42,513 nt of DNA. Source: Candidatus Nomurabacteria bacterium (lineage in GTDB: Bacteria; Patescibacteriota; Saccharimonadia; Saccharimonadales; Saccharimonadaceae). This document shows positions 4,223-42,513 of the stretch, piece after piece. The notes under the pieces are model-generated. The model was not told the origin of the DNA. It saw nothing but the letters and a program-made list of their open reading frames with translations, and made no database searches. Numbering within the stretch: position 1 is the stretch's first letter; each line of letters opens with the position of its first letter. Both the position numbers and the translations under genes were made by a program. The stretch spans positions 1 to 42,513 of the forward strand of contig JAITKW010000066.1 of the NCBI GenBank assembly GCA_031278275.1. Direction: 5' to 3'.

Positions 4223-5203
4223 TCATAATGCCAGCAATCTGCTGGTGGCGTTAACCAGCTCGGGTAAAAATTGCTCGTACGACTCATAGATTCTCAATCC
4301 GGCGGCATAAGAGTGTCCGCCACCACCAAAATAACTTGCTAATTGTTCCGCAACGGGGACGGTGGAGCGGATTTTGGCGGTCAATTTGCCGTCCGGATAA
4401 GTTTTGATGGCGACTGCGACATCTACGCCATCTACGAGGCGCAATTCTTCCAAAATCAAGACGTTGGGGTTGTATTCGTCCGAGAACTCGCGAATATCTT
4501 CCCATGGGATAAACACGGTTGCCAGTTTGCCGTCAAAATGATATTCTACACGCTTAATCAGGTCGGCTTTATAGCTCAAAATACGGGCGGATTTCTTCAT
4601 CAAATCTCGGCGTTTTTCCTCAAACTCAGCGGGAATTACTCCCATATCAATTAGGTTGGCAATTTTACGATAAACATCGGAGGTGACGTTTTGGCTGGTC
4701 AGCCCCAAAGTGTCAGATTGAATTGCGCCGTATAAGCAACTGGCGGCTTCGGGGTTGGTGGTCAGTTTAAGTTCTGTTGCGATGTCATAAATCAATTCCC
4801 CAGTTGCGACTTTTGGCTCAATAAGTTGGTCAAAATCAAATTGCAAATCGGCGGCGGTTTCGTGATGGTCGATGGCAAAAACGGGTTTTTGGTAAAGAGC
4901 GTTTTTGATGGCGGGGTTTTGTAGTAATTTTGACAACAAAACTTCTGAAACGGTGTCAACGATGATGATGGCATCGCAAGCAAAATCAAACTCGTCAACC
5001 ACCCTGCCCCACCCCGAAAAATAACGCAAATATTTCGGGATATTCACGGGGCAATAAAGTGAGATTTCGTTGCCGGCTGAACTCAAAACTTCTTCCAAAG
5101 CTAAGGCGGAGCCCAACGAATCGCCATCTGGGTTTTCGGCTTGAACTACGCAAATATGGTGGTTTTGGGCGATAAATGTCGCAAAGTTGGCGTATTTATT
5201 CAT
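4223..5203 (-). CDS. nrnA: DHH/DHHA1 phosphoesterase (NrnA-like oligoribonuclease / pAp phosphatase)
   Basis: 326 aa with DGDSLGSALAL, IIVDT, DHH (AIDHHE) and the C-terminal GGGHSYAAG motif. Confidence 0.85.
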   Translation of the reverse strand: MNKYANFATFIAQNHHICVVQAENPDGDSLGSALALEEVLSSAGNEISLYCPVNIPKYLRYFSGWGRVVDEFDFACDAIIIVDTVSEVLLSKLLQNPAIKNALYQKPVFAIDHHETAADLQFDFDQLIEPKVATGELIYDIATELKLTTNPEAASCLYGAIQSDTLGLTSQNVTSDVYRKIANLIDMGVIPAEFEEKRRDLMKKSARILSYKADLIKRVEYHFDGKLATVFIPWEDIREFSDEYNPNVLILEELRLVDGVDVAVAIKTYPDGKLTAKIRSTVPVAEQLASYFGGGGHSYAAGLRIYESYEQFLPELVNATSRLLAL

Positions 5204-5804
5204 AATTTGTCCTCCCGTTTAGAGCGTGGGTTAAGGTGATTTGATCGGTGTATTCCAAATCCACACCAATCGGAATGCCACGCGCCAGGCGGCTAACTTT
5301 CACGGCTTGGTTCCCTTTCCTAATGGCTTTTTGCAGGAAAATGGCGGTTGATTCTCCTTCTACGCTGGCATTGGTCGCAATGATAATTTCATGGACAACG
5401 TCATCAACCACACGTTTTAGCAACTCTTTGATGTGCAAATCTTTTGGTTCCACACCGTCAATAGGAGATAAAACGCCACCCAAAACGTGATAAGTGCCTT
5501 GAAAGCTGTGGGTTTTTTCAATGGCGATGATGTCCAAAGGCTCTTCCACGACCAAAACCACGCTTTTGTCGCGTGTGGGGTCAGTATAAAGCGATGACAA
5601 AGTTTCGTCAGAAGAGATTAAGGCGAAAGTCTTGGGGCAAGTTTTAATTCCAGCGTGCAAGGAATCCAAGGATTTGGCGAGAGTTTTCGCCACTTTGGGG
5701 TCGGATTTCAAGAGGAAATAAGCATAACGTTCGGCGGTTCTGGAACCAACGCCAGGCAACCGACCAATAGCATTAACCACATTTTCTAACGCTTGTGGTA
5801 ACAT
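5196..5804 (-). CDS. recR: Recombination protein RecR (zinc-finger cysteines degenerate)
   Basis: 202 aa with an N-terminal HhH (RLPGVGSRTAERYAYFLL), a Toprim block (VVLVVEEPLDIIAIEKT...IIATNASVEGESTA) and a C-terminal GIPIGVDLEY. Only 1 of the 4 expected Cys is present. Confidence 0.9.
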   Translation of the reverse strand: MLPQALENVVNAIGRLPGVGSRTAERYAYFLLKSDPKVAKTLAKSLDSLHAGIKTCPKTFALISSDETLSSLYTDPTRDKSVVLVVEEPLDIIAIEKTHSFQGTYHVLGGVLSPIDGVEPKDLHIKELLKRVVDDVVHEIIIATNASVEGESTAIFLQKAIRKGNQAVKVSRLARGIPIGVDLEYTDQITLTHALNGRTNYE

Positions 5805-24524: not shown

Positions 24525-24794
24525 CTACCAACTACTCTTTATTACGCCCGGTATTTCGCCACGGCTGGCTTTTTCGCGGAAATTGATTCTATCCAAGCCA
24601 AAACGGCGCATATATGCCCGCGGTCTGCCGGTCAATAAATCACGGTTTTTGCGTCTGGTGGGTGAAGAATTGCGGGGCAATTTTTGCAAACTTTCTTGGT
24701 CGCCGGCGGCTTTTAATTCAGCGCGCTTGGCTGCATATTGTTCAAACATTTTCTGTCTTTTTTGATCTTTTAATACAATTGATTTTTTCGCCAT
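24525..24794 (-). CDS. rpsN: 30S ribosomal protein S14 (long, Cys-free type)
   Basis: 89 aa with [20 protein letters not shown] and a C-terminal [11 protein letters not shown]. It has no CxxC motifs. Confidence 0.95.
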
Positions 24795-36899: not shown

Positions 36900-37379
36900 T
36901 TAGCTTCGCGCAAAGTGCGCAAAAGCGCGGTTGGCCTCCGCCATGCGGTGGGTGTCTTCCTTTTTCTTAAAGGCGGCACCGGTTTGGTTATAAGCGTCAA
37001 TGATTTCAAGGGCAAGACGCTCTTTGTATGGCGTACCTTTTCGCGCACGGGCGGACTGAACGAGCCACGAGAAAGCAAAATGTAATTGGCGATGTCCGGA
37101 AATGGGGAATGGGATTTGGTAGTTGGCACCACCGACACGGCGGGATTTGACTTCAAAATCTGGCGAAATGTGCTTTAAGGCTTCCTCAAAAAGTTCTTGG
37201 GGATTTTCGGATTTCAGATTTTTGGCGGCCTTTTCCAAAGCGTAATAAACCGCACGCTCAGCGACTTGTTTTTTGCCGTTTTTGATGGATTTATTGATGA
37301 GTCGTTGGACTAAGATGCTTTGATAACGGCGGTCAGGGTTGACTTTTCTTTGTAATGATTTGGTAACTTTGCGTGGCAT
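36900..37379 (-). CDS. rpsG: 30S ribosomal protein S7
   Basis: 159 aa with [19 protein letters not shown] and a C-terminal HRMAEANRAFAHFAR. Confidence 0.97.
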   Translation of the reverse strand: MPRKVTKSLQRKVNPDRRYQSILVQRLINKSIKNGKKQVAERAVYYALEKAAKNLKSENPQELFEEALKHISPDFEVKSRRVGGANYQIPFPISGHRQLHFAFSWLVQSARARKGTPYKERLALEIIDAYNQTGAAFKKKEDTHRMAEANRAFAHFARS

Positions 37380-37792
37380 TATTTACCTTCTTTCTTGGCA
37401 CCATACTTGCTACGACCTTGTTTGCGATTTTGTACGCCTTGTAAATCCAACGTGCCACGCACGACATGGTAGCGCACGCCCGGTAAATCTGGCACGCGTC
37501 CGCCGCGCACCAACACAACGGCGTGTTCTTGGAGGTTGTGTCCTTCGCCACCGATATACGCCCAAACTTCCGTACCGTTAGTTAAGCGTACGCGCGCAAC
37601 CTTGCGAAGGGCGGAGTTCGGCTTTTTGGGGGTTTTGGTGGTGACTTTGATGCAAACCCCACGTTTCAAGGGGGCGTTTTGTTGATAATATTTGGTTTTC
37701 AAAGTGTTTTGAATCGTAAGCAACGCAGGCGACTTGCTTTTTTTGCCAGAAGTCTTGCGTGGCTTGCGGATTAACTGATTGATTGTTGGCAT
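37379..37792 (-). CDS. rpsL: 30S ribosomal protein S12 (13-aa insertion; Pro at the Lys88-equivalent position)
   Basis: 137 aa with [30 protein letters not shown] and [13 protein letters not shown]. Its TAATG stop/start overlaps rpsG. Confidence 0.97.
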
Positions 37793-38178: not shown

Positions 38179-38718
38179 TTACAAATCTACCACTGCGTCT
38201 TCGGTGGCGAGGTCTTCGCCCCTTATGGCTTCGGTGATGTCGTCAAAATCTTCATCTTCGGTAAAATCGTCCACGACCGCCATTTTGTTGGACTTTACGC
38301 CAGTGCCAACGGGGATTTTACGCCCAATAATCACATTTTCTTTGAGTCCGACAAGACGATCGACTTTGCCAGAGATGGCGGCAGAAATCAGGACGCGGGT
38401 AGTGTCTTGGAAAGAGGCGGCAGACAAGAAACTGTCGCTGTAAATCGCTACTTTAGTGATACCAAGCAATAATTGGTTGTATTTGCAAGGAGTTTTGCCC
38501 GCTTTTTCCAATTTTTCGTTGGCTTTGATGGCGGAGGATTTGCTGACAATGTCGCCAATGATGAAGCTGGAATCGCCCGCATCTTCAATCATCACCCGAC
38601 TAAACATTTGCCGAACGATGATTTCAAGGTGTTTGTCGGAAACTTCTTGCCCCTGCGCTGCGTAAATCCTGAGAACTTCGTTGATAATGTAGCGTTCGGT
38701 AGCTTCAATGCCTCTGTA
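38179..38718 (-). CDS. rpoC: RNA polymerase beta-prime, C-terminal 179 codons, in frame with and immediately downstream of the TAA at 38719-38721
   Basis: YRGIEATERYIINEVLRIYAAQGQEVSDKHLEIIVRQ-MFSRVMIEDAGDS..LLGITKV..SFLSAASFQDTTRVL..GLKENVIIGRKIPVGTG. The first ATG is at 38607. There is no ATG, GTG or TTG between the stop and that ATG. Confidence 0.75.
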   Translation of the reverse strand, partial: YRGIEATERYIINEVLRIYAAQGQEVSDKHLEIIVRQMFSRVMIEDAGDSSFIIGDIVSKSSAIKANEKLEKAGKTPCKYNQLLLGITKVAIYSDSFLSAASFQDTTRVLISAAISGKVDRLVGLKENVIIGRKIPVGTGVKSNKMAVVDDFTEDEDFDDITEAIRGEDLATEDAVVDL

Positions 38719-41700
38719 TTACATCAAATCAAGTAGGTTCAGCGAACCTGCGGTCAGGCGGTCACCAGCTTTCACTGCGCCACCGGATTTAACCACAATC
38801 TCCACTTCATCAGGCACCTCAATTTTGACGGGAGCTGACGTGGCACCCACAATCACGATTTCGTCATCATTGGCTTGTTCTACTACGCCATCAATAGGGG
38901 CAACGAGCGGTGCTTTGTCGTCAGATTTGGCGGCGATGATGTCGCCCACGCGCACGGCTTTGCCGTTTTTGACTTTCATCTTGCGACCGTCAAGTTTCAA
39001 ATGTTCTATCTTGCCAGACGAGGGAGTAACTTGGATTATAAAGCGTTTGCCATCTTCCCAAACTTCCACCATGCCGTCAATTGGCGATACGGTGGCTTGA
39101 CCTTTCGGCGTTCGGGCTTCAAACAATTCTTCAACGCGTGGCAAACCTTTAGAAATGGCACCGGAACCAGCCACACCGGACGAGTGGAAAGTGTCCAAAG
39201 TCAACTGCGTGCCAGGTTCGCCGACTGATTGCGCCGCAATCACGCCGACTGGTTGGTTGGCTTCCACCAATTTTTTGGTTGACATATCCAGGCCATAACT
39301 TTTCTTGGACACGCCGTCCAAGTTTTTGGTGGAGAGAATGCTGTAGATTTTTACGCTGTCCACGCTCTCATCATCTTCAATTTCGTCCGCAATCTCACGT
39401 GTGATTAGCTCGCCAGCCTCCACATGCCCAGATACGGTTTCGGCAGCATAGCGCCCAGCCAAACGGTTGGAAAACTCAATCATAGTCAATTCAGTTTCAT
39501 TACGATAAATCGTAAAGCCCTCATCTTCGCCCTCTTCGTTGGTCGTGAAAACATCTTGCGCAACATCAACCAAGCGTCTGGTCAAATAGCCCGAGTCGGC
39601 CGTCTTGAGAGCGGTTGAAACTAAGCCTTGCCTTGCGCCACGTGTTGCCACAAAAGATTCCAGCAAAGACAAGCCTTTTTTGAAATTGGAGCGAATGGGC
39701 AGTTCCATCTCGCGACCATTGACATCAACCATAATTCCAATCATCGCAGAAGCCAGTTTGATATTTGACACGGTGCCACGTGCGCCAGAGTTGACCATTA
39801 AACTGATGTTTGTGTCAACGCTGTCAATTCTGGTTTTCAAAAGGTCGGAGATTTTGTTGTCAACGTTGCGCCAATTGGCAACCGTCAAGTTATGGCGCTC
39901 TTTGTTGGTAATCAACCCCTCGTTATATTGCTCAGCGATTTGTGCCGCTCGCCCCGTACCCTCCGCCACCATTTCAGCCACTTCCGGAAAGTCAACATAA
40001 TCGTCTTTGGATGTGGACACGCCCGCAATCGTTTCGTACTTGAAAGACAAAGCCTTAACCGCATCGGCAATTTTCACGGTCATATCGGCACCATATTTTG
40101 CAAAAATCTTGTTCATGACTTTTTTCAATTGTTTTTTGGTTTGAGCCGAATTGTCAAAGGGATAATCTTCCGGCAATACCTCGTTGAACAGCACTCGCCC
40201 AAAAGTGGTTTCGCGCATTTCACCTTTGAATGGTAATTTAATGGGAGATTGTAGTTGGATTTTTTGATTGTCATAAGCCATCTCAGCTTCATAAACTGAA
40301 GAAAAAGTTTTCAAATCGCCCTTGATTTTGCTGTAAGTGAGGTAGTAAATCCCCAGTACCACGTCTTGTTCAATAGATAAAACCGGCGCGCCGTCAGCGG
40401 GTTTTAATAAATTGTTTACCACACTAATCAAGCCCCCGGCTTCTCTTTGAGCGTCTTCGGATATGGGCAAATGCACCGCCATTTGGTCACCGTCATAGTC
40501 CGCATTGAAACCTTTAGCGACCAACGGGTGCAATTGAATGGCTTGACCGTCAATTAACTTCGGCTGAAAGGCTTGAATGGAGAGCTTGTGGAGGGTCGGC
40601 GCACGGTTAAGCAACACGTATTTGTTAGTAATCACTTCGTCCAAGCCGTCCCAAACCACCGCCTCGTTGGATTCTATCATGTGGTTGGCGTTTTTGATGT
40701 TGTTGGCGTGTTCGTTGCGGATTAACCACGAAATCACGAACGGCCTGAACAGCTCCATCGCCATTTGTTTTGGCAAACCGCATTGATTGATGTTTAGCTC
40801 AGGCCCAACCACGATGACCGAGCGCCCAGAATAATCCACACGCTTGCCCAGCAAGTTCTGGCGGAAGCGACCTTGTTTGCCTTTTAGCATATCAGATAAA
40901 GATTTCAGTTGGCGTTTGTTGTTGGACGATTTGGCGGTACGGTTGCCATGCGTGGCGGAGTTGTCAATAAGGGAATCAACCGCTTCTTGCAACATGCGCA
41001 TTTCGTTACGGCAAATCACGTCTGGAGCGTTCAAGTCCATCAGTTTTTTCAGGCGGTTGTTGCGGTTGATGACACGGCGATATAAATCATTGATGTCTGA
41101 GGTGACGAAACGCCCGCCCGCTAGTGACACAATTGGACGCAAATCTGGCGGAATGACAGGAATAATTGTCAACATTAAATCAGCTGGCTTAATCCCCGCT
41201 GAGCGCATACCTTCCATTACTTTCAACCTTTTGACCAGTTTTTTCTCTTTTTGACCGCGTGCGCTTTTCGCGGTCTCGGTCAATTCCTCAATCGTTTTGT
41301 CAATATTGATTTCGTCCAGCAACTCTTTGATAGCCACGCCACCCATGCCAACCTTAACCAAATCTTCATATTCTTCCGGCAACTCCGCTTTTTCAGATTC
41401 AGTCATTAAACTGTATTTATTTAACTTGGTCAACCAATTTTTTCTTTCCGTATAATCGGTCTCCAAACTTTCCACCTCTTCGGCTTGGGCTTCCGCTAAA
41501 GCCTTGATGTCCGCATTTTTATCTTTAGCAGCGTCTTCGTAACGGATTTTGATAGCTTCGCGCGCCGCTACAGTTTGGGCTTCCAGCTCCTTGAGTTTTT
41601 GGTCTTTGGCCTCATCATCAACGGAAATAATCACAAAACTGGCAAAATAAATCACTTTTTCAATATTTTTCACCGTCATGTCGAGCAAAAGACCGATAGC

Positions 41701-42054
41701 GCTGGGCACGCCACGCATAAACCAAATATGCGCCACCGGCACCGCTAAAGTGATATGCCCCATACGTTCGCGGCGCGAAATGGCTTTGGTCACCAAGTTC
41801 CCATCACGGTCAACCGCCGCTTCGCGACTCCTGATGCCTTTCAATTTGCCATCATGCGGGTTGATGTCTTTGACTGGACCAAAAATCCTTTCGCAAAACA
41901 ACCCATCACGTTCAGGTTTTTGCGTGCGATAATTGATGGTTTCCGGTTTCAAAACTTCGCCATAACTCCAATTTAACACATCTTCACTGCTTGCCACGCT
42001 CAAACGAATGGAATCAAAGTCGTTCGTGCCAATATATTGATCAAATCGTCCCAT
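38719..42054 (-). CDS. rpoC: RNA polymerase beta-prime, N-terminal 1111 codons (ends at the in-frame TAA)
   Basis: Motifs: RRERMGHITLAVPVAHIWF, NADYDGDQMAVH (catalytic), SGARG and GVIAAQSVGEPGTQLTL. Its start is coupled to the rpoB stop (TAAAATG). Confidence 0.95.
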   Translation of the reverse strand: MGRFDQYIGTNDFDSIRLSVASSEDVLNWSYGEVLKPETINYRTQKPERDGLFCERIFGPVKDINPHDGKLKGIRSREAAVDRDGNLVTKAISRRERMGHITLAVPVAHIWFMRGVPSAIGLLLDMTVKNIEKVIYFASFVIISVDDEAKDQKLKELEAQTVAAREAIKIRYEDAAKDKNADIKALAEAQAEEVESLETDYTERKNWLTKLNKYSLMTESEKAELPEEYEDLVKVGMGGVAIKELLDEINIDKTIEELTETAKSARGQKEKKLVKRLKVMEGMRSAGIKPADLMLTIIPVIPPDLRPIVSLAGGRFVTSDINDLYRRVINRNNRLKKLMDLNAPDVICRNEMRMLQEAVDSLIDNSATHGNRTAKSSNNKRQLKSLSDMLKGKQGRFRQNLLGKRVDYSGRSVIVVGPELNINQCGLPKQMAMELFRPFVISWLIRNEHANNIKNANHMIESNEAVVWDGLDEVITNKYVLLNRAPTLHKLSIQAFQPKLIDGQAIQLHPLVAKGFNADYDGDQMAVHLPISEDAQREAGGLISVVNNLLKPADGAPVLSIEQDVVLGIYYLTYSKIKGDLKTFSSVYEAEMAYDNQKIQLQSPIKLPFKGEMRETTFGRVLFNEVLPEDYPFDNSAQTKKQLKKVMNKIFAKYGADMTVKIADAVKALSFKYETIAGVSTSKDDYVDFPEVAEMVAEGTGRAAQIAEQYNEGLITNKERHNLTVANWRNVDNKISDLLKTRIDSVDTNISLMVNSGARGTVSNIKLASAMIGIMVDVNGREMELPIRSNFKKGLSLLESFVATRGARQGLVSTALKTADSGYLTRRLVDVAQDVFTTNEEGEDEGFTIYRNETELTMIEFSNRLAGRYAAETVSGHVEAGELITREIADEIEDDESVDSVKIYSILSTKNLDGVSKKSYGLDMSTKKLVEANQPVGVIAAQSVGEPGTQLTLDTFHSSGVAGSGAISKGLPRVEELFEARTPKGQATVSPIDGMVEVWEDGKRFIIQVTPSSGKIEHLKLDGRKMKVKNGKAVRVGDIIAAKSDDKAPLVAPIDGVVEQANDDEIVIVGATSAPVKIEVPDEVEIVVKSGGAVKAGDRLTAGSLNLLDLM

Positions 42055-42055
42055 T

Positions 42056-42513
<458 letters not shown>

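Follow-up and report, generated by a model that had tools for sequence, protein, structure and literature searches.

Bacterial RNA polymerase (RNAP) is a zinc enzyme that carries two structural zinc ions in its beta-prime subunit; the first site is tied to termination, antitermination and factor docking at the RNA exit channel, and the second to assembly. Whether such an enzyme can exist without this metal is the question raised by an rpoC gene, encoding beta-prime, on a 42,513-nucleotide contig (JAITKW010000066.1 of assembly GCA_031278275.1, deposited as a Candidatus Nomurabacteria bacterium and placed by GTDB in the Saccharimonadales; hereafter, the window). All four zinc ligands of the first zinc site (Zn1) are replaced in the product of this gene. 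We consider it likely that the ancestor of the Saccharimonadales (Saccharibacteria/TM7) remodelled Zn1 as a mini-domain of unchanged length that contains no metal, and also lost the second beta-prime zinc site.

The homologue of the beta-prime zinc-binding domain (ZBD) spans residues 58-101 (41752..41883, minus strand), reads FGPVKDINPHDGKLKGIRSREAAVDRDGNLVTKAISRRERMGHI and contains no Cys. An earlier note on this DNA had singled out residues 64-89 within it (INPHDGKLKGIRSREAAVDRDGNLVT; 41788..41865, minus strand, read from the DNA and its translation), and had claimed that a segment of unchanged length, held between well-conserved flanks (LFCERIFGP and RRERMGHI), carries Pro, Asp, Val and Asp instead of the four zinc ligands. 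Both points are borne out by the HMMER alignment of residues 10-144 to a solved beta-prime (PDB 8i23_D), which contains no gap and in which P, D, V and D fall on the four Cys. The segment also aligns ungapped to 80 zinc-bearing Patescibacteria sequences. Codon by codon (all on the minus strand), Pro66 (CCG, 41857..41859) occupies the position of E. coli Cys70, Asp68 (GAT, 41851..41853) that of Cys72, Val81 (GTT, 41812..41814) that of Cys85 and Asp84 (GAT, 41803..41805) that of Cys88, while His67, between the first two, is encoded by CAT. At each of these four positions, Cys is found in 20/20 outgroup sequences (from zinc-bearing orders of the same class), whereas the aligned ingroup sequences (Saccharimonadales) have Pro at residue 66 and Asp at residue 68 (29/29 in both cases), Val (28) or Ile (2) at residue 81, and Asn (22), Asp (3), Glu (3) or Lys (2) at residue 84, a position at which N, D, E, K, Q and S all occur across the clade. 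A possible shift of the Cys to other places in the segment was checked, and the loss holds: there is no displaced Cys in beta-prime residues 1-300, the sole Cys being C54 within the conserved LFCERIFGP. Position, length and flanks are thus homologous to those of Zn1, but the four-ligand CxC...CxxC pattern of a Cys4 ribbon is absent. As all four thiolate ligands are replaced, the known Zn1 metal site cannot exist as such.

The gene is listed as an open reading frame (ORF) of 1111 codons, translated into 1111 residues (38719..42054, minus strand), which ends at an in-frame TAA (38721..38719, minus strand). Past this stop, the same frame runs on for 179 codons down to 38179 (38179..38718, minus strand), and these last codons of rpoC encode the tail of RNA_pol_Rpb1_5. 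An interrupted frame in a metagenome-assembled genome (MAG) that is 75% complete and split into 74 contigs could speak for an artefact, be it an error in sequencing or assembly, a pseudogene or contamination by a foreign contig. However, the rpoC genes of relatives are single open frames of 1269-1301 residues, uninterrupted and with a consensus Lys at the TAA position, and the TAA, which is about 3.1 kb distant from the zinc domain, is seen in this assembly alone. In addition, 53 independent genomes share these substitutions (several of the genomes being closed as one contig), as do at least 587 species representatives. These comparative data refute the artefact explanation, to which we attach next to no probability.

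In other respects, the product has the hallmarks of a bacterial RpoC: RNA_pol_Rpb1 domains 1-5 (PF04997, PF00623, PF04983, PF05000 and PF04998) are all present above their cut-offs (E 2e-71 to 4e-06), and the catalytic NADFDGD-type motif reads NADYDGD (beta-prime residues 517-523). There is one copy of rpoC in the source genome. Relatives likewise have one rpoC gene per genome, second matches there being contig splits or weak matches. A second, zinc-bearing rpoC was thus rejected, as none is present in this genome or in its relatives.

How far does the Cys-free form extend? It is present, with a constant length, in every genome sampled from the GTDB order Saccharimonadales (53/53, representing 20 families), and the order consensus reads FGPVKDINPHDxK[LY]KGVRSREAAVDKNGE[LI]VTKSIVRRERMGHI. 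The comparison of rpoC across Patescibacteria that the earlier note had proposed gives a sharp boundary, as CxC...CxxC is retained in 20/20 genomes that belong to different orders of this class and in 60/60 genomes from 56 further families of the phylum, amounting to 80/80 of the Patescibacteria sampled elsewhere in the phylum (72 families). When one genome per GTDB species was scanned for the motifs G[VMI]R[SAT]RE[AM]AVD and GP[VT][KR]DINP[HN], at least 587 loci were confirmed among species representatives, and the best 80 of these are titled mostly Saccharibacteria, Nanosynbacter, Nanosyncoccus or TM7 G3. Finally, among the 150 best of 1.84 billion protein-cluster representatives, 11 are Cys-free, all of them with DINP, and the other 139 have the four Cys. 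Together with the 80 Patescibacteria genomes, these 139 representatives uphold the earlier statement that the element is otherwise near-universal. It had also been envisaged that the loss might turn out to be common and already documented in this lineage. Common it is, being order-wide, but documented it does not appear to be: no publication on a Cys-free beta-prime was found in literature searches, which left out most subscription journals.

The substitutions are restricted to one clade, have a single origin on a long stem branch, and have been under strong purifying selection since then. A maximum-likelihood tree built from 40 beta-prime proteins places all Cys-free ones in a single clade (Shimodaira-Hasegawa-like approximate likelihood ratio test (SH-aLRT) support of 100), so that one change of state is enough to account for them. 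At 0.43 changes per site, the stem of this clade exceeds in length every other internal branch of the class-level sequences, and the sister group of the clade (families f27, f28 and f32) has all Cys. Within the order, pairwise identity is 85.3% over residues 64-89, which corresponds to the 82nd percentile of 26-residue windows, and 88.7% over residues 58-101, vs 67.6% for the whole protein. The same comparison in the zinc-bearing outgroup gives 78.8% for the segment and 62.3% for the whole protein. Between the ingroup and outgroup consensus sequences, by contrast, identity is 38.5% over residues 64-89 and 63.3% overall. The stem thus saw a burst of change, after which purifying selection has been no weaker than on the zinc form. 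Such a pattern is that of a rebuilt, working domain instead of decay, and the Cys-free segment appears to be a metal-free form of the domain that still functions.

Alternatively, the loss of partners (Rho, phage-type antiterminators) may have relaxed the constraint on the domain, in which case the Cys would have drifted off and the segment would be little more than a spacer. The ZBD belongs to the RNA exit channel's wall, lies within the Rho ring and touches phage Q (PMC9908020, PMC6606751), and Rho (TIGR00767) exceeded the cut-off in 0/121 genomes of the class, ingroup and outgroup included (weak matches are other P-loop ATPases). NusA, for its part, is present in 16/16 genomes tested. Moreover, deletion of the domain is tolerated in vitro in Thermus, where ZBD-deleted RNAP still assembles and releases RNA with Rho (PMC9908020), so that basic activity needs no zinc ribbon. 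Yet the outgroup orders are equally devoid of Rho and have kept all eight Cys. The absence of Rho therefore does not explain the Cys change, and Rho loss was rejected as its cause. In addition, few parts of the protein are better conserved in the clade than the Cys-free segment, and its length is constant in 53 genomes, which is not what a spacer would show. We thus regard relaxed constraint as an unlikely explanation.

The replaced Zn1 ligands are only one half of the matter, as the canonical second zinc site of beta-prime (E. coli C814, C888, C895 and C898) is also missing. The region of its first ligand (C814) reads TNEEGEDEG (39517..39543, minus strand) and contains no Cys, where the outgroup has D-C-G-D in 20/20 sequences, and the alignments place Thr909, Ser916 and Ser919 (39298..39330, minus strand) at the positions of C888, C895 and C898, respectively. 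All four second-site Cys are retained in 20/20 outgroup sequences, whereas the site is lost in 30/30 ingroup sequences. In the latter, Cys is found at the first two positions in just 3 and 8 of the 30 sequences and never at those of C895 and C898 (0/30), which are occupied by P/S/A/G and S/A. The conserved blocks around the site (SGYLTRRLVDVAQD ... YG.D ... GVIAAQS) remain intact and collinear. Among the Cys-free proteins, the three that diverge most (P0128, P0131 and P0133), which branch inside the clade, are without the second site too, and no intermediate with one site lost was found. The second site has reportedly been found necessary for beta-prime folding and assembly, in work by Markov et al. 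that appeared in Genes Dev in 1999.

No other bacterial RNAP core subunit is known to bind structural zinc. With both beta-prime sites lost, the core enzyme of the clade should hold none, and bacteria of this order probably transcribe without structural zinc. As far as sequences can tell, we are dealing with a clade-defining, selected Cys-free variant of both beta-prime zinc sites, from which we infer the zinc-free state of the enzyme. Under this model, the 44-residue domain would persist without metal, its fold being kept and its function unchanged. At the ligand positions, Cys has given way to Pro, to Asp, to Val/Ile and, at the fourth, to polar residues, for the most part Asn. Pro66 and Val81 may form a small hydrophobic contact where the metal cluster would otherwise sit, while Asp68 may pair with residue 84 or cap backbone amides of the first knuckle. 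The pairs found at residues 68 and 84 are mostly D-N, the others being D-D, D-E, D-K, D-Q and S-S. Inherited non-ligand residues have not moved (His67, Asp82, K62, K70, K72, R75, R77, K/R83, K90, RRER and the flanks), and the basic ones among them would maintain contacts with nucleic acids and factors.

Beta-prime is not the only protein concerned. RecR (5196-5804, minus strand), in which Pfam recognizes the HhH, Toprim and C-terminal domains but no zinc finger, retains a single one of the four Cys in its C4 finger (TCPKTFALISSDETLSSLYTDP), as is the case in 13/13 ingroup sequences, while all four (CxxC...CxxC) are present in 21/21 outgroup sequences. Ribosomal protein L36 (19518-19643, minus strand) is a Cys-free version made in place; it is Cys-free and reads KKISPDD...VINK in 4/4 ingroup sequences, whereas 5/5 outgroup sequences have CxxC...C..H. 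The first knuckle of L36 is replaced by Pro and Asp, as in beta-prime. Ribosomal protein S14 (24525-24794, minus strand) is a long form of 89 residues without Cys. The long, Cys-poor form is found in 6/6 ingroup genomes, while the outgroup has five short Cys4 forms and three long ones (3/8 long). Outside the window, DnaX (g0_240) and a PilB/GspE-type ATPase (g0_147) of the same genome are without the Cys clusters of their outgroup orthologues (one comparison each); outgroup DnaX reads NC..PCGICANC, a module that is deleted in DnaX of this genome (one comparison).

Neither the loss of the second beta-prime site nor that of the RecR and L36 Cys clusters, which maps to the same node, is part of the earlier note; with them, what looked like a lost zinc ribbon becomes a probably zinc-free polymerase. 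On balance, we lean towards the view that Saccharibacteria, including the cultivable human oral Nanosynbacter and Nanosyncoccus, transcribe with a multisubunit RNAP holding no structural zinc, and that this would belong to a single ancestral event in which defined nucleic-acid machines (beta-prime twice, RecR, L36, and probably DnaX and S14) were stripped of their Zn(Cys)4 sites, with DnaJ, RadA, PriA, UvrA and Fpg left untouched.

Several observations weigh against a metal-free domain and a zinc-free polymerase. First, His67, Asp68 and Asp82 are invariant or nearly so, and could in principle hold a metal. The domain might then still bind a metal ion via O/N ligands (His67, Asp68, Asp82, and Asp/Asn/Glu84 or Glu78) instead of four thiolates. 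His67 is conserved to 90% or more, neither Asp68 nor Asp82 varies across the alignment of 57 sequences, and residue 84 in this genome is also Asp. However, His67 and Asp82 are already present in the zinc form (ECHC, CDKC), and in zinc-ribbon CxC/CxxC knuckles side chains of the His67 and Asp82 type do not face the metal. Furthermore, two of the four ligand positions are occupied by Pro and Val, which are incapable of metal binding, and position 84 is variable (N, D, E, K, Q, S). Metal binding by such a set of ligands therefore seems improbable to us.

Secondly, structure prediction is of no help on this point. In an AlphaFold2 model of residues 1-340 built on a shallow alignment of 40 sequences, the predicted local distance difference test score (pLDDT) is below 50 over residues 28-117, and a full-length model based on a likewise shallow alignment of 57 sequences has a mean pLDDT of 55, with residues 28-117 again below 50 and a catalytic core that is equally poor. 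Because the alignments are too shallow and the catalytic core is poor as well, these models support no conclusion either way. Thirdly, the restriction to one clade holds for the sampled Patescibacteria, coverage beyond them being limited to the set of 150 best representatives, in which the 139 proteins from outside Saccharibacteria all have four Cys.

The last two points bear on the motive. Cys makes up 0.75% of the ORFs of the genome, which is not lower than in outgroup samples (0.47-0.91%), and CxxC clusters are kept in DnaJ, RadA, Fpg, PriA, UvrA and a ComF-like protein of the same genome. The Cys content and the retention of the Cys4 clusters of DnaJ, RadA, Fpg, PriA and UvrA both weaken a zinc-sparing or oxidation motive. 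A proteome-wide Cys economy was rejected on both counts. As some Cys clusters have been lost and others kept, the event was selective and does not amount to a general purge. Zinc scarcity, or the sensitivity of Zn(Cys)4 thiolate clusters to oxidation, would be a plausible driver of such an event.

If true, a zinc-free polymerase in the Saccharimonadales would provide a natural experiment on the purpose of the conserved RNAP zinc sites. An order in which all ligands of both sites are replaced, but in which the first domain is strongly conserved, would mean that zinc is not essential to the design, and the RNAP of this clade would be a zinc-free scaffold supplied by nature, with which other enzymes could be compared. 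Some of these bacteria are culturable (TM7x-type epibionts), which makes the metal content of the enzyme, its structure and its resistance to oxidants and chelators directly testable. The Cys losses of RecR and L36 at the same node point to a pressure on Zn(Cys)4 sites that acted at the level of the lineage and can be dated, and they bear on the ecology of these reduced epibionts. The motif DINPHD...SREAAVD also provides a clean clade signature for annotation.

The surroundings of rpoC are those expected for this gene. The 3' end of rpoB (42056..42511, minus strand; Pfam RNA_pol_Rpb2_7, E 1e-26) lies directly upstream, and S12 (37379..37792), then S7 and EF-G, are found downstream, in agreement with the rpoB-rpoC / rpsL-rpsG-fusA order. 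The source genome is a 0.54-Mb MAG, of which the window is contig 37. The closest public proteins are labelled Candidatus Saccharibacteria, and the very closest Nomurabacteria, which is probably a mislabel. Just after the zinc domain, beta-prime has a helical hairpin of about 65 residues (residues ~145-215; 41410-41620, minus strand), which AlphaFold2 models as two long helices (pLDDT 85-94). This hairpin is not present in the Firmicute beta-prime 8i23_D and is common to the zinc-bearing outgroup orders, and is thus unconnected with the Cys loss.

Four known systems come closest to what we describe. The first two are the canonical beta-prime zinc sites. With canonical Zn1 (E. coli C70, C72, C85 and C88), the segment shares its position in beta-prime, its length (no indel), its flanks (LFCERIFGP ... 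RRERMGHI) and several non-ligand residues, namely the His between the first two ligands, the Asp after the third, and the basic residues of K-x-K and R-x-R. It differs in that all four thiolates are replaced (by P, D, V/I and N/D/E/K), and in its consensus identity to the nearest zinc-bearing relatives, the 38.5% given above for residues 64-89. The second site resembles its canonical counterpart in the surrounding blocks, but its last two ligands are never Cys in the clade.

The third comparison is with the C-minus forms of zinc-ribbon ribosomal proteins, which Makarova, Ponomarev and Koonin (in 2001) and Panina et al. (in 2003) are said to have described. In these proteins too, a Cys-free zinc ribbon is presumed to do the same job, and L36 and S14 of this genome are themselves C-minus. 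Of the two components of a C-plus/C-minus switch, beta-prime provides the Cys-free version, but the zinc-bearing paralogue is missing from the genome: as there is a single rpoC, there is nothing to switch with. C-minus systems also differ in having a Zur-regulated back-up copy, whereas the replacement in beta-prime is fixed and order-wide.

The fourth is the ZBD-deleted RNAP of Thermus thermophilus (PMC9908020), which similarly illustrates that a bacterial RNAP assembles and works in vitro without its zinc ribbon. That construct was engineered and its domain is gone, however, while in the Saccharimonadales the domain has been kept and is conserved.
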